This document shows, piece by piece, positions 2,394 through 55,183 of a stretch of DNA of 64,000 nucleotides. The notes below the pieces were generated by a model that searched no databases, was not told where the DNA came from, and worked only from the letters and a program-made list of their open reading frames with translations. The position numbers and the translations under genes were made by a program. Each line of letters starts with the position of its first letter. Within the stretch, counting starts at the first letter, position 1. The DNA is from Alphaproteobacteria bacterium. GTDB taxonomy: Bacteria > Pseudomonadota > Alphaproteobacteria > Rs-D84. The stretch is from contig JAFXVM010000003.1 in NCBI GenBank assembly GCA_017524525.1, positions 1,836 to 65,835 on the forward strand, read 5' to 3'.

Positions 2394-5165
2394 ATGCTAA
2401 CATTAATTGACGGAAATTCGCTGGTATTCAGGGCATATTACGGTGTTCACGGTAATTTAACCAGATCTGATAATATGCCCATCGGCGCTGTGTACGGATT
2501 CTTTAATATGGTATTGCCTGTATTAGCAAAGGCAAAACCGCAAGATTCTTTCGTATGCGTATTTGATGCTTCTCGCATCAGTTTCCGTCAAGACATTTAT
2601 CCTCTATACAAAGCCAACCGCAAAGAAACACCTGCTGATTTATTACAACAAAGCGAACTTATTCGAATCGGTGTTCACGAAATGGGGATACCTGTGTTAT
2701 GTATTCCCGGGGTCGAAGCAGACGATGTAATTGCGACACTGGCAACACAATATTGCAATATTGATGGTGGCACGCGTATTATCACTGGCGACAAAGATTT
2801 AATGCAATTAGTGTCTAACTGCACTTTCCTTTATGACGGAATGAAAGAAAAAGAAATTCACGAAGGGGAAGTCTTTGAAAAATTCGGTGTAACTCCTTCA
2901 CAAGTTATTGATGTTCAATCTTTGATGGGTGATTCCACAGATAATGTTCCGGGTGTCCCAGGTATTGGTCCAAAAAAGGCAACTGAACTCGTCAATGAAT
3001 TTAAATCTCTTGATAATTTATATGCCAATTTAGATTCAGTTAAAAACGAAAGAATTCGCAATTTATTAAAAGAAAATCGTAACCAAGCATATATTTCTAG
3101 ACAACTTGTCACACTTAAACGTGATGTAGATTTAAGTGGTTTACAAATAACACCTTTTTGTTTTAATAAAAACACAGCAATTGATTTCGTACAAAATAAA
3201 ATTGAAAGCAAAACCTTAATTGCGAAAATAGAAAAACTTTTTCCTGGCGATAAAATTACTTGCACACCGTCAGTCACAGAATACGAAAAATCCATTTGCC
3301 CTGTTGTTGATATTCCAACACCAACAGAAACAAAATCAACTCTTGGCGAAATGAACATAATCACAATTTCAACAGAACATGAATTAGATGCGTTTTTATC
3401 TAATGTCAAAGACGTTATCGCTTTTGACACAGAAACCACAGGATTAAATCAAACAGATGATAAAATTGTCGGCATTTCGCTTGCTTTTGACGACACACAC
3501 GGTGCTTATATTCCCGTGCGACATATAACAAAATCGGCTGATTTGTTTGGTGGGGGAAATTTGGTTGATAACCAATTATCAATTGAAACAGTTTATAAAA
3601 AACTTTGGCCGATATTCACAAACCCAAAGATAACTAAAATCGCGCACAATATTAAATATGATTTACATATCTTGGATAATGAAGGTTGGGACATAACAAA
3701 AATATCACCTGTGGACGACACAATGTTGTTATCTTATGCGTTGCACGGCGCATTACATGGACACGGTTTGGATGAATTGGCTGAAAAATATTTGGGGCAC
3801 CAAGACATAAAATTCGAAGATTTGTTTGACGCAAAAACCAAAGATTGCGACAGACACTTTGAAACATTACCTATTGAAATTGCCACAAAATATTCAGGCG
3901 AAGATTCAATTGTATGTATGGCATTATACAATTTGATGCGCCCGCAATTAAACGAAAATCAAAAATTGCGCGAATTATACGAAACTTGCGATTTACCATT
4001 ATGTCTTATTTTATGTTTAATGGAAAAACAAGGTGTTGCGGTCAATCGCGACAGACTAAATCAGTTATCAAGCGTTTTTCATAAACAATTGGAAAAATTA
4101 GAAACTGAAATTTATGATTTAGCAGGCCACGAATTTAACGTGGGCAGCCCGAAACAATTGGCAACTGTATTGTTCGAAGAATTGCATTTGCCATCCAAGA
4201 AAAAACAATCTACGGACGCAGATACTTTGAACGATTTGTTGGAACATCACCCAATTATCGAAAAAATATTAAATTGGCGTTCTATCGCTAAATTGGCCAG
4301 CACTTACGCGGATGCCCTGCCCCACCAGATTGCAACAGACGGTAGAATACATACAACTTATTTACAAACCAGTACGAACACAGGCCGCCTGTCCAGCCGC
4401 AATCCAAATCTTCAAAACATTCCTATAAAAACAGAATTAGGCGAAGAAATAAGAAAATGCTTTGTCGCACCTGCTGGCAAAACTTTGATAAGTGTTGATT
4501 ATTCACAAATACAGTTGCGTCTGCTGGCAGATGTTGCAAATGTAAAAATATTCAAAGACACATTTAATGCAGGACTTGATATTCACGAACAGACTGCACG
4601 CAAAATATTTAATATCCCAGACAGCACAATTGTTCCAAAAGATTTAAGACGCGCTGCAAAAACAATAAACTTTTCCATTATTTATGGGATTTCGGCATTT
4701 GGATTGGCTAACCAATTAAATATCTCACGCGAAGAAGCGAAAAAAATCATAGATTCTTATATGGCAGGCTTGCCAGAAATCAAAGAATATATCGACCATA
4801 TAACTAAATTCGTATTTGAAAAACATTGCGTTTATACACCATGGGGACGCAGGATTGAAATTCCCGAAGCATCCAACCCGCGTATGCGCGGATATGTAGC
4901 GCGCGCAGCAATCAACGCCCCCATCCAAGGATTCGAAGCGGACATCGTCCGTCATGCGATGGTGAACGTGTATAACAATATCGTTGTTCCAAATAACGAC
5001 AAAATAAAAATGATTCTTCAGGTTCACGATGAAATAATATTTGAATGTGATGAAAAAAAAGCAAAAGATTTTGCTAAAAAAATTCAAAACGAAATGGAAA
5101 ATGTCACAAAATTGTCTGTGCCGCTTTTAACCGAAGCAATAATTTCACCAATTTGGGATAAATAG
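2394..5165 (+). CDS. polA: DNA polymerase I
   Basis: 923 aa. 5' nuclease N-terminus (LIDGNSLVFRAYY), 3'-5' exo motif (AFDTETTGL), and polymerase motifs (DYSQIQLRLLA, QVHDE). Confidence 0.97.
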   Translation: MLTLIDGNSLVFRAYYGVHGNLTRSDNMPIGAVYGFFNMVLPVLAKAKPQDSFVCVFDASRISFRQDIYPLYKANRKETPADLLQQSELIRIGVHEMGIPVLCIPGVEADDVIATLATQYCNIDGGTRIITGDKDLMQLVSNCTFLYDGMKEKEIHEGEVFEKFGVTPSQVIDVQSLMGDSTDNVPGVPGIGPKKATELVNEFKSLDNLYANLDSVKNERIRNLLKENRNQAYISRQLVTLKRDVDLSGLQITPFCFNKNTAIDFVQNKIESKTLIAKIEKLFPGDKITCTPSVTEYEKSICPVVDIPTPTETKSTLGEMNIITISTEHELDAFLSNVKDVIAFDTETTGLNQTDDKIVGISLAFDDTHGAYIPVRHITKSADLFGGGNLVDNQLSIETVYKKLWPIFTNPKITKIAHNIKYDLHILDNEGWDITKISPVDDTMLLSYALHGALHGHGLDELAEKYLGHQDIKFEDLFDAKTKDCDRHFETLPIEIATKYSGEDSIVCMALYNLMRPQLNENQKLRELYETCDLPLCLILCLMEKQGVAVNRDRLNQLSSVFHKQLEKLETEIYDLAGHEFNVGSPKQLATVLFEELHLPSKKKQSTDADTLNDLLEHHPIIEKILNWRSIAKLASTYADALPHQIATDGRIHTTYLQTSTNTGRLSSRNPNLQNIPIKTELGEEIRKCFVAPAGKTLISVDYSQIQLRLLADVANVKIFKDTFNAGLDIHEQTARKIFNIPDSTIVPKDLRRAAKTINFSIIYGISAFGLANQLNISREEAKKIIDSYMAGLPEIKEYIDHITKFVFEKHCVYTPWGRRIEIPEASNPRMRGYVARAAINAPIQGFEADIVRHAMVNVYNNIVVPNNDKIKMILQVHDEIIFECDEKKAKDFAKKIQNEMENVTKLSVPLLTEAIISPIWDK

Positions 5166-5167
5166 TT

Positions 5168-5602
5168 ATGATAAATTCTGCAACTAGGTTAAATATAAAA
5201 ATATTACCAGACGCAACAACAATTCAAAATATTGTTAATATATTGGAATCAAATAAAATTCCATGCCAAGATTTTATCCACGATTCTCACTGTACTATTA
5301 TTTATACCCCCGACATAATTAAAAATGTTAATATGCCAGATATAAAATTACCAATAATTGGGACCAAAGCGCACTTTGAATTTTTTGACACCCAAGATGA
5401 CGGCATTGTTTTAGTTATAGAATTTGAAAGCGTTGCCGCTAAAAAACTTTTTAAATATCTCAAAGAAAAATATAAATTCACAATAAAATATAATGATTTT
5501 AGACCGCATATAACAATTCAAAAAAATATACCTGCAAAAATAAAATTACCAGATATAAAATTCAATTTATTTTTTAATCAATTAATCAAAGAAATTATAT
5601 AA
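5168..5602 (+). CDS. Small 2H-phosphoesterase-like protein (two H-x-T-x motifs)
   Basis: 144 aa. HCTI at residues 41-44 and HITI at residues 114-117. The ATG lies 2 nt after the polA stop. Followed by the terminator at 5607-5637. Confidence 0.45.
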   Translation: MINSATRLNIKILPDATTIQNIVNILESNKIPCQDFIHDSHCTIIYTPDIIKNVNMPDIKLPIIGTKAHFEFFDTQDDGIVLVIEFESVAAKKLFKYLKEKYKFTIKYNDFRPHITIQKNIPAKIKLPDIKFNLFFNQLIKEII

Positions 5603-7106: not shown

Positions 7107-7754
7107 TTATAACATTTTTCTTATTTGCGGGATTTTAATTCCTTGGGCATCACAAACATCACAAAGAAATTTTTTTGTCACATTTAAATCAACCGGTAAT
7201 TTATACAATTTTTCTTTATACGGTTCACCACAATCACGGCAAACCGCCCTTCCCGTCTTTGGAGAAAGATAACACAAATCATTTGTTTTTTGACAACCAG
7301 AACATTTTGTTAAATCCAGCGCATAACCTAAATCATGCAATAAATTTATTTCCCAATCTAAATATAAATCCCACGGATTGTCTGTACCATTTAAATCATT
7401 TAATAATGCAAAAGTTTTTTTATATAAATCGTTATACGATTCGCGTTCTGGAATCAAAGTATAAATCAAAGCAAAAACACAATTCATAATTTTTAATAAA
7501 TCAGCATTCATCATCAAAGCCGCAGATAAATTTTTTTCATTTTCAAAATGAAACACACCTAGTTGCGAATCAAGCCGTGCGTTCCACGACAGTCGTCCAA
7601 ATTGCCCAACCAGCGGTTTATTTTTTTTCGCGACCACCGCGCCCCGCAACATCCCGACCAGAACACCATTATCACAAGTAAAAATATGCGCCAGCGCATC
7701 CCTTTCATTAAAAGGTTTTATATTTATCAAAATACCAGTTGTTTCAATTTGCAT
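7107..7754 (-). CDS. recO: DNA repair protein RecO
   Basis: 215 aa. N-terminal OB-fold pattern (GILINIKPFNERDALAHIFT) and a C-terminal Cys4 zinc motif (CSGC...CRDC). Confidence 0.85.
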   Translation of the reverse strand: MQIETTGILINIKPFNERDALAHIFTCDNGVLVGMLRGAVVAKKNKPLVGQFGRLSWNARLDSQLGVFHFENEKNLSAALMMNADLLKIMNCVFALIYTLIPERESYNDLYKKTFALLNDLNGTDNPWDLYLDWEINLLHDLGYALDLTKCSGCQKTNDLCYLSPKTGRAVCRDCGEPYKEKLYKLPVDLNVTKKFLCDVCDAQGIKIPQIRKML

Positions 7755-8284: not shown

Positions 8285-9712
8285 TTACTTTGCGATAAAT
8301 CTGTTAAAAGTCTTTTCATTAACCTTCACAGGATATTCAGCTTTCAAGAAACGCGTATAATCGTCTTGGATAAATCTTAATGAAACATTTTCCAATTCTT
8401 TGCGCAAAGCTTCCTTTTTTGCCTTGTCTTCTTTTGGCATAACAGTTTCACCAACGCGCACAACATAGAAAGCACTTTCGTCTTCTGTCATGGCGTTATC
8501 GCCAGTTTTGCCCGCAAACGCAGCATTCAAAACCGCCAAAGGTGCACCTTCGGTTCTGGTGACATCTGCTTTCTTTGATGCTTTTTCAAAAGCCACCCTG
8601 CCTTCGTCACCATTTTTCAAAGCAATTAATTTTTCGTTTGCTGCTTCATAAGCCATTTTGCGCTGTTCAGCCTTTTTCCAATCACCGACCAAAGATTTTT
8701 GAACATCTTTGAATTCGGCATTATGTTGCGGGTGCACTTCGTCAACGCGCAAAATTACAAAGCCTTCTTTTAATTCCAACAATTCACTTTCGCTGCCAGA
8801 TTCCATAGCAAACAATTTTGCAACCAAATCATTCGTCAAAACTTTGTCAGCCATTTTGCCATTACGTTCGATTTTTTCCAGTTTAACATATTTTGCATTA
8901 TGCTTATCCGCGGCAGTCTTCATAGAATCGCCAGAAATAATCATATCTTCGATTTGTTGTGCAACTTTGAAACCTTCGTCATAAACATCAGGTTTATTCA
9001 TATCGGCCGCAACAAACACATAAGACACAGAACGAGTTTCTGGAACCGTTATTGGATTTTGCGCATAATAAGCCTGTAATTGTTCTTCGGTTGGGGTTCC
9101 CACTTTGTAATCAGCAAACCCCACAGTTGCATAATTCACACCACGTTTCGCATAGCGCGCATTATAAGCCGCATCAACTGCAAATTGAGGAACTGTCAAC
9201 GGCACATTTGTTGCCCCCACTGTCATAGAACGCAAAATATCAGCACGCAAAGAAGCAGCAAAATCTTGTTCACTTAAACCCGCGTTTTGTAAAACCATAT
9301 CAAACATCCACGGAGAAAATTCACCATTAGATTGGAATTGTGGATATTTTTTAATCTCTTCTGCGATTCGTTTATCAGAAACAACATAACCTAAATCATA
9401 TGCACGATTCAAAATTAATTGATTCGTTGTTAAATTCGCCATAACAGAATTTGTCAGCGCTGCCGCCTTGGCTGGATCAGCATATGCAGCACGTTGTTCG
9501 TCTTTGCTCATAGAAGACAATTCGCGCGAACGTGCATTATTAAACTGTTGCACAGATATTTGTTCGCCGCCAACGCTTATCAAATTCGTATCACGAGCCG
9601 AACTGCCAAATATCCATTCAGCAGCGCCCCAGCCCACAAAACTGAAGATTAAAATATACATTAAAACTTTCGCCACAGGTTTATCTGCAGCATTACGTAA
9701 ATATTCTAGCAT
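8285..9712 (-). CDS. PpiD-like periplasmic chaperone (SurA N-terminal domain protein)
   Basis: Start moved to MLEYLRNAADKPVAKVLMYILIFSFVGWG, the typical PpiD N-terminus plus TM. The longer listed ORF would overlap tpiA. Confidence 0.75.
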   Translation of the reverse strand: MLEYLRNAADKPVAKVLMYILIFSFVGWGAAEWIFGSSARDTNLISVGGEQISVQQFNNARSRELSSMSKDEQRAAYADPAKAAALTNSVMANLTTNQLILNRAYDLGYVVSDKRIAEEIKKYPQFQSNGEFSPWMFDMVLQNAGLSEQDFAASLRADILRSMTVGATNVPLTVPQFAVDAAYNARYAKRGVNYATVGFADYKVGTPTEEQLQAYYAQNPITVPETRSVSYVFVAADMNKPDVYDEGFKVAQQIEDMIISGDSMKTAADKHNAKYVKLEKIERNGKMADKVLTNDLVAKLFAMESGSESELLELKEGFVILRVDEVHPQHNAEFKDVQKSLVGDWKKAEQRKMAYEAANEKLIALKNGDEGRVAFEKASKKADVTRTEGAPLAVLNAAFAGKTGDNAMTEDESAFYVVRVGETVMPKEDKAKKEALRKELENVSLRFIQDDYTRFLKAEYPVKVNEKTFNRFIAK

Positions 9713-11008: not shown

Positions 11009-11059
11009 ATTCATATTTCAACGCACAATGGTTATTACAACGGAATCAAAGCAGACTTG

Positions 11060-11085
11060 TCCCACGAAGTTTTAACGAAGTGGGA
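11060..11085 (+). repeat. Stem-loop with conserved 14-nt loop GAAGTTTTAACGAA (copy 1)
   Basis: TCCCAC-gaagttttaacgaa-GTGGGA. The same loop, with a CACAC/GTGTG stem, occurs at 54350-54373. Confidence 0.6.
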
Positions 11086-25118: not shown

Positions 25119-25195
25119 CGGGGCGTAGCTCAGTCTGGTAGAGTACTTGGTTTGGGACCAAGGTGTCGAAGGTTCGAATCCTTTCGCCCCGACCA
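25119..25195 (+). tRNA. tRNA-Pro (anticodon UGG), CCA encoded
   Basis: Hand-folded cloverleaf: CGGGGCG/CGCCCCG acceptor, GCTC/GAGT D stem, CTTGG-TTTGGGA-CCAAG anticodon arm, GAAGG-TTCGAAT-CCTTT T arm, then ACCA. Confidence 0.93.
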
Positions 25196-25398
25196 GAAAA
25201 TTCAAACCACCACTTTTGTGGTGGTTTTAATTTTCTCTAAAAAGGGGCGAAAGGATGCGCCAGAGCGTCAGGCACATTTATGTGCCACAAATTGACGCGC
25301 ATGGCGTATACGCAGACGAACAATTAACAACCATTCAAAAACGGATATATTTAATAGAGTTTTTGTTTATGGTTGGTTTATTGTTTGTCAAGGAGAAA
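25196..25398 (+). repeat. tRNA-proximal ~0.2 kb module, copy 1 (homologous to 54052-54267)
   Basis: Shares these elements in the same order with the tRNA-Gln copy: aaaattcaa-hairpin-ttttaatttt; an inverted copy of the tRNA 3' end (ggggcgaaaggat at 25244-25256); core tacgcagacgaacaattaa (17/19 identical); and end ttattgtttgtcaagg (15/16). Confidence 0.75.
25204..25234 (+). terminator. Intrinsic terminator after tRNA-Pro
   Basis: AACCACCAC-TTTT-GTGGTGGTT followed by TTAATTTT. Confidence 0.75.
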
Positions 25399-25419
25399 TC
25401 GCCCCGACCAGAAAGTTAA
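25255..25419 (+). CDS. Candidate 54-aa small protein with a hydrophobic C-terminal helix, inside the tRNA-Pro module
   Basis: AAAGGGG lies 7 nt before the ATG. MRQSVRHIYVPQIDAHGVYADEQLTTIQKRIYLIEFLFMVGLLFVKEKSPRPES. The TAA stop is followed by the hairpin at 25421-25445. The D-x-H...YADE-x-L stretch is conserved in the tRNA-Gln copy with three synonymous third-base changes, but that copy has ACG instead of ATG. Confidence 0.25.
   Translation: MRQSVRHIYVPQIDAHGVYADEQLTTIQKRIYLIEFLFMVGLLFVKEKSPRPES
25399..25414 (+). repeat. 16-nt direct repeat of the tRNA-Pro 3' end (att-like)
   Basis: tcgccccgaccagaaa is identical to 25184-25199. Confidence 0.85.
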
Positions 25420-25522
25420 AGACCGCTTATCAGAGCGGTTTTTCTTTTGTATTCCAATATCTTCGCTGAGTTCGAGAATTAAGTTTTTGGGAAGTACTGT
25501 TTTTTTGCTATTGTTCGAACTC
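25406..25522. repeat. Terminator-associated repeat, copy A
   Basis: Hairpin ACCGCT/AGCGGT plus a T-run, conserved spacer cttttgtattccaatatcttcgct, then long-range stem gagttcga...tcgaactc. The 45-nt core is 42/45 identical to copy B. Confidence 0.75.
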
Positions 25523-25528
25523 GTTATA

Positions 25529-26317
25529 TCATTTTTCATGCATATTATAAAACATTTTTATTAGTTTTCTTATATCTTTATCCATATATTTCTTTGCATT
25601 TGCGATTATATTAGTTGGGATTTTAAATCTTAATTCTGCCAGTCCACCTGCCATACATGCCAAAGTATCGCTGTCACCACCCAAGGACACAGCGTTTCGC
25701 AAAGCATCTTCATAAGAACATGCATCTAGTGCACAAATAATTGCCTGAGGAACAGAATTTTTACATTGCACATAAAAACGATTATATAATGGTCTGATTT
25801 CATCCAAACTTTGATGTACATTATATTGATATTTATCACTTATGGTTTCTTTTATTTGGTCTATAGGAATTAAATTTTGAATCATGAAACCTGTTTCAAG
25901 ATAAGCATGAACTGCATTTAAACTTTCCGGATGATTATGTGTAATTTTTGTAATCTCGTCCGCTTTTTTAAATAAACATTGTTGATCGTGGTTTATATGC
26001 AAAAGCGGACTTATACGCATAACACAACCATTAGAACTAGAATTTATAGAAACACCAGTATTAACCCATTGCAAAAAACCTTTACCAAAAGCACCTATTT
26101 CACCATTTTCGTAGGTACGATTTTGATATTTCAAAGCCCATTTACGCAATGTTTCTTCGATTGATAGTTTTGATATTAAATGTTCAGCAACCGCACAAGT
26201 CAAAATAGTATCATCTGTAAAACAGCAAGATTCATCAAACAATGAAAAATCCTTAGTTTTGATGTTATGAAATTCAAAACGCGAACCAACTATATCACCA
26301 ATAATAGACCCAAGCAT
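25529..26317 (-). CDS. ADP-ribosylglycohydrolase family protein
   Basis: N-terminal MLGSIIGDIVGSRFEF, FTDDT, and C-terminal GGDSDTLACMAGGLAE motifs of the ARH/DraG fold. Confidence 0.85.
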   Translation of the reverse strand: MLGSIIGDIVGSRFEFHNIKTKDFSLFDESCCFTDDTILTCAVAEHLISKLSIEETLRKWALKYQNRTYENGEIGAFGKGFLQWVNTGVSINSSSNGCVMRISPLLHINHDQQCLFKKADEITKITHNHPESLNAVHAYLETGFMIQNLIPIDQIKETISDKYQYNVHQSLDEIRPLYNRFYVQCKNSVPQAIICALDACSYEDALRNAVSLGGDSDTLACMAGGLAELRFKIPTNIIANAKKYMDKDIRKLIKMFYNMHEK

Positions 26318-26435
26318 TTTGGAACTCCTGAAACTTACATGACTATTATATACATATTATTCAAAAGTTAAGAAAAAATTATCTATCTCTCTTCCAATCT
26401 TCATAATCTCAGTTCGCAAACCGTCATCCCAGCAC

Positions 26436-26550
26436 GACCAGAGAGTTCAAACCGCTCGTCAAGAGCGGTTTTTCTTTTATATTCCAATATCTTTGCTGAG
26501 TTCGAAACCACACTTTTTTGAAAGTGCTGTTTTTTACTTAATTTCGAACT
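26436..26550. repeat. Terminator-associated repeat, copy B
   Basis: gaccagagagttcaa, hairpin ACCGCTC/GAGCGGT, T-run, cttttatattccaatatctttgct, then stem agttcgaaa...tttcgaact. The distal arm overlaps the last codons of the 26538 gene. Confidence 0.75.
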
Positions 26551-27329
26551 TTTGCATCATAAACACGTGTATTTGTTGTGTTTTGATTTAACTTGTATAT
26601 TTTTGCACCGGGCTTTGATATGATTTCGGTCATGGTTTGCTTATCACCATTTGTTTGAATCAGCAATGCAGCAGGTTCATCAACAGCATATCCGAATTTA
26701 GATTCTTTGACCAACATCCTTTTGATAACATCTTTGGAAGTGGCTTCTTTATCAATTCCTTTTTCTGGTTTCTTATTCCAATGCGGGCAAAAATATCCCT
26801 TTACAAAACCCAATGCTTTTTTTGTTGTAAGTGTAGATTCTGTTCCATCAAAATCTTCATCTTCGTCATTATCATAATATTCAAACCAAACACAACCACC
26901 AGCACTGTTCCCAGACATAATGACACCTTTGTCGTACGCTTCTTTTAATATTTTATCTGTACCTGATTCTTTTAATGCCTTCATTAAACGTGTTACATTA
27001 CCACCGCCAACATAAATTATGTCTGCACTCATAATCATTTCGCGAATTTGTTCAACAGTTGGTCTTTGTGACAAATCAGTCAAAATCAAATTCTTCGCAA
27101 CACAGCCTAATTTCTTTTCAAACACGTCACAAACAACAGGGAAATAAGTTGGACTATCATTACTCGCAGCGCCAATAAAAATCAAAACTGGTTGTTTTTT
27201 GCCTGTTATTTCCACTATCTTTTTATCTGCCAGTTCTGTTTCCCAAGGTTTTTGTTCGCTATGACCATCTTCGTGGATTTTGATTCTTCCCATTTCACCA
27301 CCACCAATAGCAACAATTGTTTTAATCAT
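26538..27329 (-). CDS. Peptidase S51 (peptidase E / cyanophycinase-like) family protein
   Basis: IYVGGGNVTRLM and the nucleophile elbow MSGNSAGG. Confidence 0.8.
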   Translation of the reverse strand: MIKTIVAIGGGEMGRIKIHEDGHSEQKPWETELADKKIVEITGKKQPVLIFIGAASNDSPTYFPVVCDVFEKKLGCVAKNLILTDLSQRPTVEQIREMIMSADIIYVGGGNVTRLMKALKESGTDKILKEAYDKGVIMSGNSAGGCVWFEYYDNDEDEDFDGTESTLTTKKALGFVKGYFCPHWNKKPEKGIDKEATSKDVIKRMLVKESKFGYAVDEPAALLIQTNGDKQTMTEIISKPGAKIYKLNQNTTNTRVYDAKVRN

Positions 27330-27465
27330 GATAAAATCCTTTCTTATAGTGTGTATTATACATTAAATAATCTAGATTTACAAGAAACTAGCCTTGATTT
27401 TACCTTTAATCTCTTCTCTCTCGCTCAATCTGTATAATCTCGCTTTGAACTAAAACAATTTTGAT

Positions 27466-48994: not shown

Positions 48995-51900
48995 TTAGAA
49001 ATTATATCTAAATTTCAACATACCTGTTTGAGATGTATAATCTTTGCGGACATCAATATCATAGTTGATAGAGAAATCAAATCCACGATATTTCATACCC
49101 AAACCGATACCGAATTCGCCACCGAATCTGGATAATCTTTCAACATCCAAAGTATATGCATCTACACCTGGCATTGTAATAGTTGCAACATTTTTATCTG
49201 ACAACATATCGTATTTTATCGCCGCATTTAATTGTGGGATAAATGTTGTATATCTGTCAGCAATTACACTGAACGCATATTTTGCACCCAAAACGCCAGT
49301 CAAGAAATTTGTATTATCAGACTTTGTTTTGACCCCCAAAGAATTGGTATAATCGTCAGCCATTACATGCATATAACGCAATCCCAATTCTGGAGTTAAA
49401 CCGAAATCTAAATCATACCCAGTTGCAACACTCATTCCAAATGAATCTACATCGAAATCAGCAGTCACAGGTGTTCCCATTGCATCACCCTCTTCTGAAT
49501 AATCAGACATAGTGTAATGTGCAACGGCGTTCACATACCATGCTGCCGGTTTATATTGACCATAAAGGAATACAGTGTTGCTGTCGATTTCTGTATCACG
49601 CACAGAACCAGAGATATCAGAATGAGCATAAGAATAACCTGCCCCCACTGTCCAAACTCTGTTCATTGTGCCATCTAACCCAGCAGCGATTCCACGAGTA
49701 TAACCGCGGAAAGCGTCGTTTTGTTTTGATTTGTTGAACAAACCTTGCGCCCAAACACCACCACTGGTCATTGTGATATCACCACCATTACGTCCAATAG
49801 TTGGCGCAGCCATACGTGCAGATGCCAAATTTGCTACAGTTGTTTGAACTGAACTTGCCACAGATTGAGTGACAGATTCTTTTTCTGGATGAACAGCTTT
49901 GGCTGCATGTTCCACTTCATGTTTTGCTTCTGGTGTTCCTTCTGCCAATTTTTCTTGGATTTTAACACCCAAATCATTCAGCTTTTCAGAAGTAGATGCA
50001 TTCAAACCAACAATCGCTTTGGCTGCATCTTGTTCGATATCATTTTGTTCAGCAATATCAGCAGCAGATTTCATCGTTGCAATCAAATCTTTGTTGCCTT
50101 CTGCCCAAGTGATATCATACACAGAACTTGTTGCATCGATACCAGCCGCTCTGAACGCAGCATCACCGAACACATGATAAGTTCCTTCGCCTGCAAAAGA
50201 CAATTTCAAAGTTCCATTACCATCGAAAGTTCCTGCTGTGATTTGAGCATCACCATTACGCAAAGTCGCCAACATTGTCCCGTCCAATGTAATGGTTCCC
50301 TGTTCTATCGTTGAAGTACCGACATTCAAAGTTGCACCATTTGCAATTGACAATGTTCCATCACCAGTAATACCACCATCCATTGTGGTTGTCCCACTTA
50401 ACACATTCACAATCCCAAGATTATGAATATCATTGGCGATACCATTTGCCATATTACCCGAGAAAACCAAATCACCAGCAAAGTTAACTACAGCAGCCCC
50501 TTTGTTGTAAATAGCGCCACCTGCCAAAGTTGCTGTGTTGTTCGAAAACACGCCACTATTGAAAGTCGCGACTGCAACCCCATGATTTACCAGAGCTCCG
50601 CCGATTCCATCTGTTACATTTGCTTTATTACCACTAAATGTTACATTTGAACCAAATATAATATTACTGTTTCCATTATAGATTGCAGTACCTGTATTAT
50701 CTGCAAAAACAGCATTTTTACCTATTGTTACATCATCACCATATAACCTAATGGCAGCAGCTCCAGTAGCACTAGTAATTGCATTATTAATGAATTTTGC
50801 ATTATCACCGATTGTAACCGTCGAATTACCAGCACCAGTACTTGATGTTCTTATCCCAGCAGCTTTTTGAGATGAGTTTCCGCTAAATTCAACATTGTCC
50901 CCAATAGTGACATTATTCGCATTCAAGAAATATACATTACCAAAAGGCGAATAATTATTTGTAAATTTAACATTATCGCCAATAGTAACAGTTCTGGTTG
51001 CGCCGGTACCTTCTGAATAAATTGCAGCACCCATTTCAGAACCGCCAGATGTGACATCTAAATCCCCTTCTTTTATAAATGCTTTGTTATTATCAAATGT
51101 CACATTATTACCGATGGTTAAATTACCATAGTTCGCAATAGCTCCACCTTCTACATTTGCATAGTTCCCAGCAAAAGTTGCGCCATCACTTACAGTAATC
51201 ATACCATTATTATATATGGCACCACCATGGAAAGCAGTATTGTTATCAAATCTACCGCCAACTGTTAAGGTTCCACTATTATATATGGCTCCGCCTTTAC
51301 CATCAGCGTAAGTTGCCAATGTGTTTTGTGAATTTGGTGTATAAATTCCATTGGCTTTATTACCAGAAAATACCCCGTTTACCAATGTCATAGTATCCGC
51401 GTTAAATATCGCACCACCATTACGACCAGCTGTATTACCAGTGAATGTTGTTGCACCGTTTATAACAAAATCAGCACGACCCACCGTATTGCCTTTTGGT
51501 GCCACACTATTCCAAATAGCACCACCATCTAAATCTGCATGGTTAGTTGTAAATGTTGTTGTTCCGTTAATTGTAACATCAGAATCTTGATTTTGCCCAT
51601 CATATGCACGTGCAACAATCGCGCCACCATGTGCTTTTGATGTATTCGACGTAAATTCATTTGTTCCATTTGTTACACCAATAACCAATGTCGCAGTACC
51701 TGCTTGACCACGGTTATGAATCGCACCACCACCACTTTTTGTAGCGCCAGTATCTTTTGCTTGGTTACCTGTGAAAATATTTTCATTACCTAAAACACTC
51801 AAATCACCAGCATTAAATATCGCCCCACCATAACCAGCATTAGCAATATTATCAATGAAAGAAACTTTGTTCGCTGTGAATGTAACGGTTCCCCCGTTAT

Positions 51901-52993
51901 CAAACGCACCAGCAGAACTTATTGTTGTATTTTCCTCAAACAACACATTACCATTTGTATTAACTGTCACAGTACCAGCATTTTTTAATCCGCCACCGTT
52001 ACCACCTGTATTGCTTGTAAAAACAAAATTACCTCCATTTAAACTGATACTGCTATCGGCGGCATTTATCAAAGAACCATTCGCGGCACCATTTGTATTA
52101 TGATTAAATGTTGCACCATTGTTAAAGACAATATGATTGTTACTGCCGTTCGTCATCAATGTACCAGTACCAATATTGTCTTCAAACGTTGCAGCACCAT
52201 TAAATGTAATATCACTAGCACCAGTAGCAAATATAGCAGAAGCGGAAGACGCTTCATTTTCTGTAAACGTTGCTGTGTCATCAAATGTTATATGCCCCCC
52301 CATAGCAGCTATCGCACCACCACTAGAAGACGCAGTATTTGCATTAAACGTTGCGACATCATTAAACACCATATCACCCGTTGAAATTATTGCGCCCCCT
52401 TTGGATGCAGAAGTATTTTGACTGAAACTTGCAACATCATCAAAAACTATCATGCCACCATGGTGATGAATCGCACCACCGCCTATTATGTCAGCATTCA
52501 TAGAACCTGTTGCAGAATTTCCTGCGAAAGTTACAGCTTCATTAAATTTGATATCTGGCGATTCTAAATTTCCAAGACCATAATTAAATATCGCACCGGC
52601 ACCATTTGCACTATTTGAGGTGTTATTTGTGAATGTTGTAACGCCATTAAAAACAATTTTTCCACCAGGTGTATATTCTGGATATACATTAACATCATGT
52701 GTTGACAGCCAACCACTTCCTATTGCTCCACCCATACCACCATTTATCAACGAATTTCCTGTGAATGAGGTTGTTCCATTGAATGTCAAGGTAACATCCT
52801 GAACATCTTCCATATAAAACACGGCACCATTATTAGCAGTAGATTCTGCAATATTAGAAGCTGTTAAATTATCATATGTAGTGTTATCTGTAATAACATG
52901 TCTAGAATCTACAGTATCCGCCATCGCAGGCATGATTGCCAATGCTGGTAATACAGAAACACCCATTAAAAAATTGTGAAATTTTTTATTCAT
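48995..52993 (-). CDS. Autotransporter with a polymorphic-membrane-protein (Pmp-type GGA[ILV]/FxxN) repeat passenger
   Basis: Start set at MNKKFHNF (AAAGGAG upstream). Signal peptide ...MPAMA. More than 15 GGAI and more than 20 F-x-x-N motifs in register. C-terminal beta-barrel ending KFRYNF. Confidence 0.9.
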   Translation of the reverse strand: MNKKFHNFLMGVSVLPALAIMPAMADTVDSRHVITDNTTYDNLTASNIAESTANNGAVFYMEDVQDVTLTFNGTTSFTGNSLINGGMGGAIGSGWLSTHDVNVYPEYTPGGKIVFNGVTTFTNNTSNSANGAGAIFNYGLGNLESPDIKFNEAVTFAGNSATGSMNADIIGGGAIHHHGGMIVFDDVASFSQNTSASKGGAIISTGDMVFNDVATFNANTASSSGGAIAAMGGHITFDDTATFTENEASSASAIFATGASDITFNGAATFEDNIGTGTLMTNGSNNHIVFNNGATFNHNTNGAANGSLINAADSSISLNGGNFVFTSNTGGNGGGLKNAGTVTVNTNGNVLFEENTTISSAGAFDNGGTVTFTANKVSFIDNIANAGYGGAIFNAGDLSVLGNENIFTGNQAKDTGATKSGGGAIHNRGQAGTATLVIGVTNGTNEFTSNTSKAHGGAIVARAYDGQNQDSDVTINGTTTFTTNHADLDGGAIWNSVAPKGNTVGRADFVINGATTFTGNTAGRNGGAIFNADTMTLVNGVFSGNKANGIYTPNSQNTLATYADGKGGAIYNSGTLTVGGRFDNNTAFHGGAIYNNGMITVSDGATFAGNYANVEGGAIANYGNLTIGNNVTFDNNKAFIKEGDLDVTSGGSEMGAAIYSEGTGATRTVTIGDNVKFTNNYSPFGNVYFLNANNVTIGDNVEFSGNSSQKAAGIRTSSTGAGNSTVTIGDNAKFINNAITSATGAAAIRLYGDDVTIGKNAVFADNTGTAIYNGNSNIIFGSNVTFSGNKANVTDGIGGALVNHGVAVATFNSGVFSNNTATLAGGAIYNKGAAVVNFAGDLVFSGNMANGIANDIHNLGIVNVLSGTTTMDGGITGDGTLSIANGATLNVGTSTIEQGTITLDGTMLATLRNGDAQITAGTFDGNGTLKLSFAGEGTYHVFGDAAFRAAGIDATSSVYDITWAEGNKDLIATMKSAADIAEQNDIEQDAAKAIVGLNASTSEKLNDLGVKIQEKLAEGTPEAKHEVEHAAKAVHPEKESVTQSVASSVQTTVANLASARMAAPTIGRNGGDITMTSGGVWAQGLFNKSKQNDAFRGYTRGIAAGLDGTMNRVWTVGAGYSYAHSDISGSVRDTEIDSNTVFLYGQYKPAAWYVNAVAHYTMSDYSEEGDAMGTPVTADFDVDSFGMSVATGYDLDFGLTPELGLRYMHVMADDYTNSLGVKTKSDNTNFLTGVLGAKYAFSVIADRYTTFIPQLNAAIKYDMLSDKNVATITMPGVDAYTLDVERLSRFGGEFGIGLGMKYRGFDFSINYDIDVRKDYTSQTGMLKFRYNF

Positions 52994-53062
52994 TATGAAA
53001 ACTCCTTTCTTCATACGATTGGAATCGTATTACATTATTTTTACATTGTCAATCTGCGGCAT

Positions 53063-53937: not shown

Positions 53938-53965
53938 TTGAAAAAACAAATAAATCATATATAAT
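53938..53965 (+). promoter_or_regulatory. Sigma70-like promoter of tRNA-Gln
   Basis: TTGAAA, 16 nt spacer, TATAAT, ending 12 nt before the tRNA 5' end. Same geometry as the tRNA-Pro promoter. Confidence 0.5.
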
Positions 53966-53977
53966 ACGGAAACGAAT

Positions 53978-54051
53978 TGGGGTATAGTTTAATGGTAGAA
54001 CAGCAGACTCTGACTCTGTATATCGCGGTTCGAGTCCGTGTACCCCAACCA
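53978..54051 (+). tRNA. tRNA-Gln (anticodon CUG), CCA encoded
   Basis: Hand-folded: TGGGGTA/TACCCCA acceptor, GCAGA-CTCTGAC-TCTGT anticodon arm, CGCGG-TTCGAGT-CCGTG T arm, then ACCA. Confidence 0.9.
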
Positions 54052-54267
54052 AAAATTCAAGCACCCTTTTGGGTGTTTTAATTTTTGGTTATTTGGGCGT
54101 AACGAGACGAGAACCGCAGGTTCGACAAGCAGTAGATTTTGGAAGTGCAACGCACCAAAATCGTTACGATTGCCACGCAAGCGAGTACGCAGATGAACGA
54201 TTAAGAAAATTTACAAAAATCGAAGTTCACGAAATTTTTTTTATTTTATTTATTGTTTATCAAGGCA
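54052..54267 (+). repeat. tRNA-proximal ~0.2 kb module, copy 2 (homologous to 25196-25398)
   Basis: aaaattcaa-hairpin-ttttaatttt. Inverted degenerate copy of the tRNA-Gln 3' half at 54093-54117 (18/25). Core tacgcagatgaacgattaa at 54186-54204. End ttattgtttatcaagg at 54250-54265. Confidence 0.75.
54059..54085 (+). terminator. Intrinsic terminator after tRNA-Gln
   Basis: CACCC-TTTT-GGGTG followed by TTTTAATTTTT. Confidence 0.7.
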
Positions 54268-54283
54268 CCGTGTACCCCAACCA
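54268..54283 (+). repeat. 16-nt direct repeat of the tRNA-Gln 3' end (att-like)
   Basis: ccgtgtaccccaacca is identical to 54036-54051. Confidence 0.85.
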
Positions 54284-54311
54284 CACTTCGCGTCTGCGAC
54301 GCTTCGTGTGG
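54281..54311 (+). other. Perfect compound hairpin
   Basis: CCACAC-TTC-GCGTC-TGC-GACGC-TTC-GTGTGG. Confidence 0.6.
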
Positions 54312-54349
54312 CAGCCCACGCGGACGGAGCAGTTATCACGAAGTAGTGT

Positions 54350-54373
54350 CACACGAAGTTTTAACGAAGTGTG
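54350..54373 (+). repeat. Stem-loop with conserved 14-nt loop GAAGTTTTAACGAA (copy 2)
   Basis: CACAC-gaagttttaacgaa-GTGTG. The stem covaries relative to the copy at 11060-11085. Confidence 0.6.
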
Positions 54374-54387
54374 GCGGACATAAGCAA

Positions 54388-54487
54388 CCGTTCGTTTCAG
54401 AGCGGGTTTTTGTTTGTTTTCTAATACTTTCACCGAGTTCGAAAGTTAAAATTAAAAAAGTGGCGATTTTTCGCCACTTTCGAACTC
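54388..54487. repeat. Terminator-associated repeat, copy C
   Basis: Hairpin CCGTTC/GAGCGG plus a T-run, spacer ttttctaatactttcacc, and long-range stem gagttcgaaag...ctttcgaactc enclosing hairpin GTGGCGA/TCGCCAC. Confidence 0.7.
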
Positions 54488-54498
54488 TTTATAAAATA

Positions 54499-54957
54499 TC
54501 ATTTTCTAAAAGGCACATTTGCACTCCATTCTTTACCTTTGTATTCTTGTTTTACTGGTTCACAATAATATCCAACGCCAGAATTGTATTTTTCAAAAGA
54601 AATATCATATTGAACTATCATATGTTTTTTTGAATCTAAAGCCATAGATAATTTTGCTTCTTTTGTTGTGCCTGGTAATATTCCTTTGTATTCTAATAAA
54701 TAATAACCTGGTTCATATTCTTCATTTTTTATTTGTGTAAAAATTTCTGTTTGTTTGTCTATAGAAACTTCTGCTTTATCAGAATATGTTTTTACGTTGA
54801 CGATAACAGGGATTTTATTTTTTGAAGAATTTGTCATGCCTTCTTCCATATATGTTTTATAATCATAATCTATATCACATTTTAGTTCTGCTTCTGATGA
54901 AGGTCTGTTACATGCTGCCAATGCCAACAACATGGGTAAAATAAGTAATTTTTTCAT
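54499..54957 (-). CDS. Lipoprotein, unknown function
   Basis: Lipobox LALAAC. 152 aa. RBS AAAGGAG upstream. Confidence 0.65.
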   Translation of the reverse strand: MKKLLILPMLLALAACNRPSSEAELKCDIDYDYKTYMEEGMTNSSKNKIPVIVNVKTYSDKAEVSIDKQTEIFTQIKNEEYEPGYYLLEYKGILPGTTKEAKLSMALDSKKHMIVQYDISFEKYNSGVGYYCEPVKQEYKGKEWSANVPFRK

Positions 54958-55183
54958 AAAAACTCCTTTCTATTCACGAAAAATTATATCATAGATTGTT
55001 AGTTAACACAAATTTATTTATTCTAAAACATCTTTCATCCCATCAATCTCTTGTCCGATTTGTATCAATTCGGCTCGCGAATTGTGCAGACAGCACAATA
55101 AAAAATTCACCTTGCTGGAATTTTAAAAAATAGTACAATGTATTCAAGCACAACAAAAATATACTAACAAAGGAAGGTTTTAT

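Follow-up and report, generated by a model that had tools for sequence, protein, structure and literature searches.

Casposons target the 3′ ends of tRNA genes and have repeats of 14-15 bp, and in the CTX phage and integron attC systems the exchange of one strand and its subsequent replication yield the order site, loop, inverted site, cargo and site. tRNA-gene integrative islands and their integrase-less derivatives, such as cis-mobilizable elements and tycheposon remnants, insert at tRNA 3′ ends, restore the tRNA, leave a repeat of part of it and stack. Elements that integrate in tRNA genes stack at the tRNA ends, where newcomers push the older ones outward (bioRxiv 10.1101/2020.12.28.424599). 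In this study, we analyzed 64,000 nucleotides of an Alphaproteobacteria bacterium of lineage Rs-D84 (assembly GCA_017524525.1, contig JAFXVM010000003.1, positions 1,836 to 65,835 of the forward strand), hereafter called the window, in which a structured module, M, lies behind each of the two tRNA genes. M belongs to a well-supported, undescribed family of structured mini-elements associated with the 3′ ends of tRNA genes. The putative element to which it belongs, which would reside in the 3′ ends of tRNA genes, shares the insertion site, tRNA restoration, partial-copy repeat and stacking of the tRNA islands. However, it is gene-less, has a length of about 200-230 bp and is almost fully folded on one strand, and it carries an inverted copy of its target that recombination between double-stranded att sites does not need. 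In its presumed mechanism it is closest in kind to the integrase-less tRNA-site elements, from which the target-mimicking inverted repeat and the strand-specific fold set it apart.

The tRNA genes of the window, Pro(TGG) at 25119-25195 and Gln(CTG) at 53978-54051, were found with ARAGORN and Rfam, which judged both to be intact, and a sigma-70-like promoter lies upstream of each. Alignment of the two loci showed one order at both: the tRNA gene, a terminator-like hairpin (T1), an inverted copy of the tRNA end (A′), M, a direct copy of the tRNA end (A) and a second terminator-like hairpin (T2). An initial annotation of this DNA had proposed this order as far as A, and the sequence items listed there were each checked and found in place. 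The 19-nt core TACGCAGAYGAACRATTAA occurs at two sites in 64 kb, 25309 and 54186, where 0.09 sites would be expected even with up to three mismatches; the shared end TTTATTGTTTRTCAAGG lies at 25377 and 54249; and the tRNA-Gln end CCGTGTACCCCAACCA at 54036-54051 is repeated exactly at 54268-54283. Exact 16-nt direct repeats of the tRNA end are present at both loci. A direct repeat of the tRNA end therefore flanks the element while the tRNA gene stays intact, as in tRNA-integrating islands and cis-mobilizable elements.

The better preserved copy is that of tRNA-Pro, with all its parts on the plus strand. T1 and a spacer occupy 25196-25243, with a stem at 25204-25227 that is terminator-like on both strands. 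A′ (25244-25256, GGGGCGAAAGGAT) is the exact reverse complement of tRNA-Pro 25179-25191, so that the longest complementary run is 13 nt, and it covers T-loop positions 59-60 and the 3′ strands of the T-stem and acceptor stem. M, here of the canonical type, extends from 25253 to 25393 and reads GGAU, hairpin P2 (outer stem 25257-25262 with 25302-25306), AAUAC GCA, helix P3 (25315-25323 with 25381-25389), hairpin P4 and AAGG. A follows at 25399-25414 as a 16-nt direct copy of 25184-25199.

At the tRNA-Gln locus, also read on the plus strand, a promoter-like site (53938-53965; TTGAAA, 16 nt, TATAAT) precedes the gene, whose last 16 nt (54036-54051) form the repeat copy A0. T1 (54052-54085) has its stem at 54059-54078 with A-tract and T-tract extensions, and forms the tip of a long imperfect palindrome made by the tRNA end and A′. 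The aaaattcaa-hairpin-ttttaatttt reported in the initial annotation was recovered as a 20-nt inverted repeat of the tRNA-Gln end and T1 region (54047-54066 / 54071-54090, 90% complementary), which scores as a terminator. The inverted, degenerate tRNA-Gln copy was likewise borne out, with arms at 54025-54036 / 54106-54117 that are 83% complementary. By eye, this A′ covers 54086-54117 and corresponds to the reverse complement of tRNA-Gln positions about 49-76. The same A′ layout, called type G, was found in L010, L038 and L042 (L-numbers denote related loci outside the window). The type-G 5′ half of the module (54119-54185) contains GGTTCGA, a direct copy of the 5′ half of the T-arm, followed by a hairpin (54135-54142 / 54155-54162) and a second small hairpin. 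The core and 3′ half of M (54186-54265) read UAC GCA, P3 (54192-54200 with 54253-54261), the long bulged hairpin P4 (54205-54250) and AAGG, and A (54268-54283) is an exact 16-nt copy of tRNA-Gln positions 61-76.

We then considered the distribution of the module. A scan for the core in one genome per GTDB species gave 24 places, of which 19 were true copies and five were chance matches within unrelated DNA. The 19 copies belong to uncultured Alphaproteobacteria of the rumen, gut or faeces, several of them named Candidatus Enterousia. In metagenomes, 22 of 31 places were true copies, from rumen and gut samples, which brings the copies beyond the window to 41. A phage origin was rejected, since core matches in IMG/VR were chance matches alone, in coding or unrelated DNA. 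A covariance model, R1, built from 27 copies and run on the window and the related loci, matched 49 places at 43-135 bits, all on the tRNA strand; the best antisense match reached 27 bits. Within the window, R1 matched 25253-25393 (123.8 bits) and 54162-54265 (59.6 bits) and nothing else. Wherever the fetched DNA holds a tRNA gene, that gene precedes the core by 80-130 nt in the same orientation. The idea of one module shared by two different tRNAs, with inverted and direct repeats specific to each, was thus extended to eight tRNA species: Gln-TTG, Gln-CTG, Pro-TGG, Arg-ACG, Glu-TTC, Ser-GGA, Ser-TGA and Lys-TTT. The copies in L008 and L010 terminate in an unassigned tRNA 3′ end (...CTCCCACCA).

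The Gln copy of the window is weaker and more diverged than the Pro copy, both in its model score and in its fold (z = -2.0 against z = -8.5). The two are different subtypes, and each is nearer to copies in other genomes than to the other. Since the tRNAs, A/A′ and subtypes differ and nearer relatives of each exist elsewhere, local duplication of the two loci was rejected. A search of Rfam 15 with four stretches, at gathering scores and at E up to 10, gave nothing above noise over the module; the tRNA family alone passed. In the open-access literature, we found no account of such an element. The finding is real: neither an artefact nor a catalogued RNA family accounts for M. The proposal of a new tRNA-targeting miniature element and/or structured RNA is upheld by the 49 model matches, the strong covariation and the lack of a fitting Rfam family.

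The fold of M was evaluated by RNAalifold and pair counts. In the alignment of M, 97.6% of the cells were paired, and compensatory double changes were present in 9 of 22 pairs. None of 500 shuffles of the alignment matched the observed values, and pairing dropped to 34-47% when the partners were slid. The outer stem of P2 has compensatory substitutions in four of its five pairs. P3 is a helix of GAYGAACAA with UUGUUYRUC, in which C-G and U-A exchange at 13:12; it holds a G.U pair in 21 of 27 copies (G.U to G-C, 21:6), where the other strand would hold a C.A mismatch. P4 is a long bulged hairpin of at least three sequence types and one shape. When individual copies are folded by minimum energy, A′ and A additionally pair as a closing stem, P1, and most copies arrive at the same three-way junction. 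The energy of the Pro copy is -70.6 kcal/mol, and the A′:A stem exceeds shuffled controls at a median z of -3.5. M is thus predicted to fold on the tRNA strand only, as a three-way junction of P2, the P3/P4 arm and the A′/tRNA-end closing stem. A structure conserved on one strand with compensatory changes is what a new structured RNA, or single-stranded DNA (ssDNA), motif should show. The junction sequences, judged by eye, do not fit a kink-turn or a hammerhead. Small open reading frames (ORFs) in the module were read from the alignments on both strands, and none was kept across subtypes.

A′ and A are traceable to the local tRNA in every copy, and A′ fits its own tRNA better than mismatched controls do. 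Canonical A′ is complementary to tRNA positions 59 to about 72, which comprise the last two T-loop bases and the 3′ strands of the T-stem and acceptor stem. It always closes with GGAU immediately 5′ of P2, and GGAU is the complement of A59-U60-C61-C62. In tRNA-Glu, where ATCC occurs twice, A′ ends at one or the other, giving a short form (L035, L046, L052, L056) and a long form (L007, L009, L018, L049); the junction is therefore defined by GGAU. Together, the tRNA end, T1 and A′ make a single long imperfect palindrome. Most copies lack the complement of NCCA or have it bulged, as at the Pro locus, where CTCTAAAAA faces GACCAGA. The CCA end is therefore mostly unpaired, and a primer-binding site of a retroelement with a tRNA-primed reverse transcriptase, which would be complementary to the 3′-terminal 18 nt of the tRNA with the CCA, was rejected. 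A consists of the last 12-19 nt of the tRNA gene and at times extends into the trailer, in L057 into an identical terminator; flanking direct repeats elsewhere measure 14-19 nt. A is often decayed or absent (e.g., L014) while A′ remains perfect against the tRNA.

The type-G subtype comprises the window Gln copy, L010, L038, L042 and L034. Its order is the complement of the whole T-arm and acceptor strand, a direct GGTTCGA, a different 5′ half and the common core. The GGTTCGA is the 5′ half of the T-arm ending at position 58, and the type-G 5′ half has a covarying hairpin of its own. In L042 and L034, this half is followed directly by AATCC and the acceptor strand, and it is therefore an insert in the T-loop of a tRNA-end copy.

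The copies also show turnover. Ser-GGA carries four subtypes across species (L014, L057, L038 and L024) and Gln-CTG carries three (the window copy, L030 and L053). L007 has two tandem units at 7155-7474, identical over the first ~130 nt up to TAC and different in their 3′ halves, and in L011 (7607-7875) the second unit stops immediately after TAC. L042 holds, at 1-439, two units and a type-G half that abuts a tRNA-end copy. P4 is chimeric in L046, and a copy cut off within the core is common to L035, L046 and L049. L007 and L011 break at TAC|G; the other rearranged copies break elsewhere, and TAC|G was therefore rejected as a common breakpoint. In L048, two modules of the tRNA-Arg type lie 1.6 kb apart in opposite orientation (7609-7722 on the minus strand and 9340-9460 on the plus strand), which suggests an inversion or rearrangement between copies.

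Additional DNA was found between the tRNA and the A-T1-A′-M unit in L022, L037 and L021, each piece bounded by tRNA-end copies. The insertion in L037 encodes a methyltransferase, and that in L021 a 609-aa ORF that looked primase-helicase-like by eye. In L022, which is read on the minus strand, an insertion of ~0.85 kb lies between tRNA-Arg (5443-5519) and the module (4394-4508); it encodes a RelE-like toxin and a helix-turn-helix antitoxin and is bounded by copies of GGGYGCGCCA, and the sister locus L005 is without it. L049 also has a cassette between the tRNA and M. In L035 (8566-11256), ORFs of 896 aa and 154 aa split tRNA-Asp from tRNA-Glu, which are ~40 nt apart in related species; this pair is probably another tRNA-end insertion. 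Stacked insertions are known from tRNA-integrating elements and were counted toward mobility.

On balance, and with modest confidence, we favor a non-autonomous integrative mini-element of tRNA 3′ ends with a functional single-strand fold, in RNA or DNA. A small circle with the order A - T1 - A′ - M would recombine through A with the last 12-19 bp of the tRNA gene, by means of a recombinase supplied in trans from another part of the genome. A and T1 of the incoming element would complete and terminate the tRNA, and the original end would be displaced downstream as the direct repeat A. Such a circle would give the observed order tRNA(A) - T1 - A′ - M - A, and the insertion would be harmless because the tRNA is restored and terminated. 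The classical part, integration, is backed by the direct repeats, the stacking and the turnover. The A:A′ stem, flanked by T1 and M, would mimic the target site as a duplex and may tie each copy to its tRNA. It could serve as the recombination site of a folded single strand or as the closing helix of a transcript. The conserved G.U pair in P3 suits RNA better than DNA, whereas T1, between the promoter and M, speaks against RNA.

The CTX phage attP(+) and the integron attC site offer a parallel to this stem, as there too a folded single strand gives a duplex imitation of the target, and the order that one-strand exchange would leave is the one observed here. However, the present loci have no dif or attC consensus, their palindromes read GTT...AAC and not AAC...GTT, and they target tRNA ends. 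The most frequent tip of P2 is GCGAAGC; the tip varies among the remaining copies and is GNRA in some. GCGAAGC forms a DNA mini-hairpin of unusual stability that is known at ssDNA priming sites (PMC13037366), and its presence may be a weak hint of ssDNA. Casposon repeats are close in size to A, but we found no terminal inverted repeats or Cas1 here, and target duplication would leave A′ unexplained. For a miniature element of the IS200/IS605 type, which would have subterminal hairpins, insert 3′ of a fixed tetranucleotide and make no target duplication, the signs are mixed: hairpins P2 and P3/P4 flank UAC|GCA and two breakpoints (L007 and L011) fall after TAC, but the others fall elsewhere, and the long direct repeats, which are not expected of IS110 or IS605 elements, argue against this group.

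Several observations weigh against the integrative reading. No integrase, transposase, Rep or reverse transcriptase was found in a Pfam scan of 20 window proteins or in a PHROGs scan of 116 ORFs near copies, judged on the best 25 of 72 matched families; these scans gave no candidate for the recombinase and no link to XerCD or IntI. With no ORF in the element and no integrase in the scans, it is not an autonomous island, and the lack of a recombinase gene beside the copies in these scans was itself counted in favor of a non-autonomous element. Nor was an empty site, an excised circle or a strain polymorphism seen, as an exact-protein look-up gave identical loci of the same strain; two independent assemblies of one strain have the same locus. 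A′ fits the upstream tRNA better than the downstream A. At its longest, the exact complement spans a median of 10 nt (at most 16) against the upstream tRNA end and a median of 7 nt against A, with 5-6 nt in the control, the flanks of copies at other tRNAs. In a circle, the T-stem part of A′ would lack a partner. T1 is not surely part of the element, because ordinary tRNA terminators of this lineage share its design. The module persists at one tRNA across many species, as at tRNA-Pro in nine loci, which also fits a domesticated, vertically inherited RNA. T1 resembles an efficient terminator and no promoter precedes M, which argues against an abundant transcript. A DNA single strand is in turn disfavored by the G.T wobbles and by the small size of the circle, only about 215 nt. 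An ordinary, module-free tRNA-Glu(CTC) with a T1-style terminator (AAAATTAAAAA, a GC stem and TTTTTTATTT) was observed in L001 (3553-3665).

A stronger form of the integrative reading, which we regard as rather unlikely, is self-programming, in which the A:A′ stem of 14-18 nt would be the sole specificity determinant for one recombinase acting in trans. The enzyme would read the structure or the universal T-loop instead of the sequence, so that a change of the stem would retarget the element. This would explain how a single conserved module stands behind eight tRNAs. The active form would be a dumbbell-shaped ssDNA circle of ~215 nt, or the same fold acting as a guide RNA. The integron-like cassette arrays on tRNA ends, with one gene per cassette, would be the work of this recombinase too.

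The best surviving alternative to a mobile element, though unlikely, is a resident non-coding RNA gene: M would encode a structured RNA from the 3′ trailer of the tRNA operon, vertically inherited after an ancient spread. Read-through of T1 would be followed by processing, by the tRNA-maturing enzymes, of the acceptor-stem-like A′/A minihelix that ends in NCCA. The strand-specific fold, the many G.U pairs and the GNRA loops at some P2 tips are what such an RNA would show, and the strength of the A′:A stem against shuffled controls fits as well. M invariably shares the orientation of a strong tRNA promoter and occupies one tRNA across many species, and T2 often follows; however, T1 separates that promoter from M. 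Also against this reading are the differing subtypes at one tRNA between species, the tandem, truncated and chimeric copies, and the frequent decay or loss of A beside a perfect A′. There is no obvious function that would require the acceptor sequence of a neighbor.

We give a small chance to a second alternative, in which M is a guide RNA whose A′, a stretch of 14-18 nt that would pair with the sense strand at the end of the tRNA gene, directs a recombinase or transposase encoded elsewhere, and the tRNA end marked by M becomes a landing pad for gene cassettes. As in the IS110 bridge RNA and the IscB/TnpB omega RNA, a conserved scaffold is joined to a short, variable, target-complementary stretch. 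A′ lies 5′ of the scaffold, is the sole part that varies with the tRNA and is perfect against positions 59-72, including a G.U-compatible change (GGGGTG, L021 and L032). Unlike those systems, the module has no adjacent recombinase or nuclease gene, including any DEDD recombinase gene of the IS110/IS1111 type, in the two scans, and no Rfam match, HEARO included. Its repeats of 14-19 nt contrast with the 2-nt core of IS110/IS1111, and direct repeats need no guide. Cassette arrays are usual at M-bearing tRNAs, as a landing pad would predict, but their order is not fixed, since the cassette in L049 lies between the tRNA and M. T1 should restrict expression of a guide.

Slightly less probable again is a mutational origin of A′ as a by-product, in which replication would have switched templates at the T1 hairpin and so lengthened the palindrome into the tRNA end, its match being kept by arm-to-arm conversion, so that only M and the direct repeats would be 'designed'. 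The long palindrome of tRNA end, T1 and A′ accords with this, the copy always halts at GGAU, and the ending of the tRNA-Glu A′ at either ATCC is what re-entry at microhomology predicts. However, preservation is best in the outer palindrome (59-72) and the inner NCCA part is bulged, the opposite of simple outward extension, and the event would have to occur independently at every tRNA. A tRNA-like nature of M, whether as a two-piece (permuted) tmRNA-like gene that has degenerated or specialised or as some other RNA of this kind, is hardly credible. The module does share with the permuted tmRNA genes of Alphaproteobacteria the order T-arm, CCA-bearing acceptor 3′ strand, hairpin and complementary 5′ strand, type-G copies contain GGUUCGAC, and Rfam gave weak tmRNA_permuted matches of 12.4 and 15.7 bits, but these are far under the gathering score of 47 bits and cover the tRNA end and hairpin only, ARAGORN found no tmRNA in the window or loci, no tag frame is kept across subtypes, there is no alanine identity, and the element is multi-copy and matches eight tRNAs.

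Beyond M, both window tRNAs are followed by stacked single genes on the minus strand, at 25413-27450 and 54376-55100. Each gene is preceded by a tRNA-side unit of a tRNA-end copy, a terminator and a palindrome (25413-25528, 26444-26550 and 54376-54498), and such units were also found in many related loci. Distal to T2, both loci have an AT-rich tract that closes with the palindrome GAGTTCGA...TCGAACTC, and the general motif is TTCCAATA..GAGTTCGA-N25-35-TCGAACTC. Its arms co-vary, GTTCGAAAGT with ACTTTCGAAC against GTTCGTAAAT with ATTTACGAAC. The cassettes are closed by a decayed copy of the T-arm and acceptor strand (26410-26441, about 27410-27450 and 55072-55100), and their genes encode an ADP-ribosylglycohydrolase, a peptidase S51 and an uncharacterised protein of 152 aa. 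At the Pro locus, T2 and the cassette-end palindrome occupy 25418-25528, with arms at 25468-25479 / 25510-22, and are repeated at 26444-26550. At the Gln locus, T2 is a terminator-like hairpin at 54388-54413 on the plus strand, the positional homologue of 25418-25449; the left end of the next cassette (54420-54498) begins with TTCTAATACTTTCAC and continues as a palindrome (54435-54446 / 54476-54487), inside which sits the minus-strand terminator of the ORF at 54499-54957. The array layout resembles that of integron cassettes. However, the sites are not attC, since the palindromes read GAGTTCGAA...TTCGAACTC with GTT outer left and AAC outer right, against R''(RYYYAAC)...R'(GTTRRRY) in attC, and the scans gave no integrase.

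These units bear on two further points of the initial annotation. It had held that the flanks beyond the modules are not homologous, which did not stand: 54397-54493 matches 25430-25528 at 73%, and 25413-25530 matches 26444-26550 at 81%. This homology is the common end of neighboring gene cassettes and not a local duplication. It had also described a single, structured, GC-rich trailer of 230 nt behind tRNA-Gln, at 54281-54487. GC richness held for 54284-54375, where 90-nt windows have 54-60% GC, and failed further on, where they have 34-42%, against about 38% for the window as a whole. The single trailer gives way to a 92-nt GC-rich insert, T2 and the palindromic cassette end. The helices assigned to the region are present, at 54302-54313 / 54347-54358 and 54281-54290 / 54365-54374.

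The insert (54284-54375, plus strand) has 10-nt terminal inverted repeats and begins immediately 3′ of the CCA of A; the Pro locus and L030 lack it. It folds modestly better than its shuffles (z = -2.2). Its single homologue lies in L017 at 1119-1210, right after a decayed copy of the tRNA-Gln end, and three compensated pairs distinguish the two. The insert is a separate small element. Its last hairpin, with the loop GAAGUUUUAACGAA, recurs in the window at 11058-11082, between a gene end and a terminator, and its stem covaries. The three sites (11058-11082, 54347-54374 and L017 1186-1210) have the loop GAAGUUU(U/A)AACGAA and the stems CCCAC/GUGGG, CACAC/GUGUG and CCC/GGG. Directly upstream of the tRNA-Gln locus, 48995-53014 on the minus strand encodes a 1339-aa autotransporter with Chlamydia-type polymorphic membrane protein repeats.

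Partial tRNA copies and structured intergenic DNA behind the tRNAs of these metagenome-assembled genomes belong to putative mobile mini-elements and to cassette arrays and are not assembly artefacts. If confirmed, the element would be among the smallest integrative elements known, with no genes and about 200 bp, and M would be a new family of structured nucleic acids in poorly studied, uncultured Alphaproteobacteria of the gut and rumen. One module at eight tRNAs would also offer a means to study the retargeting of a site-specific element, which may be of interest for programmable insertion tools.

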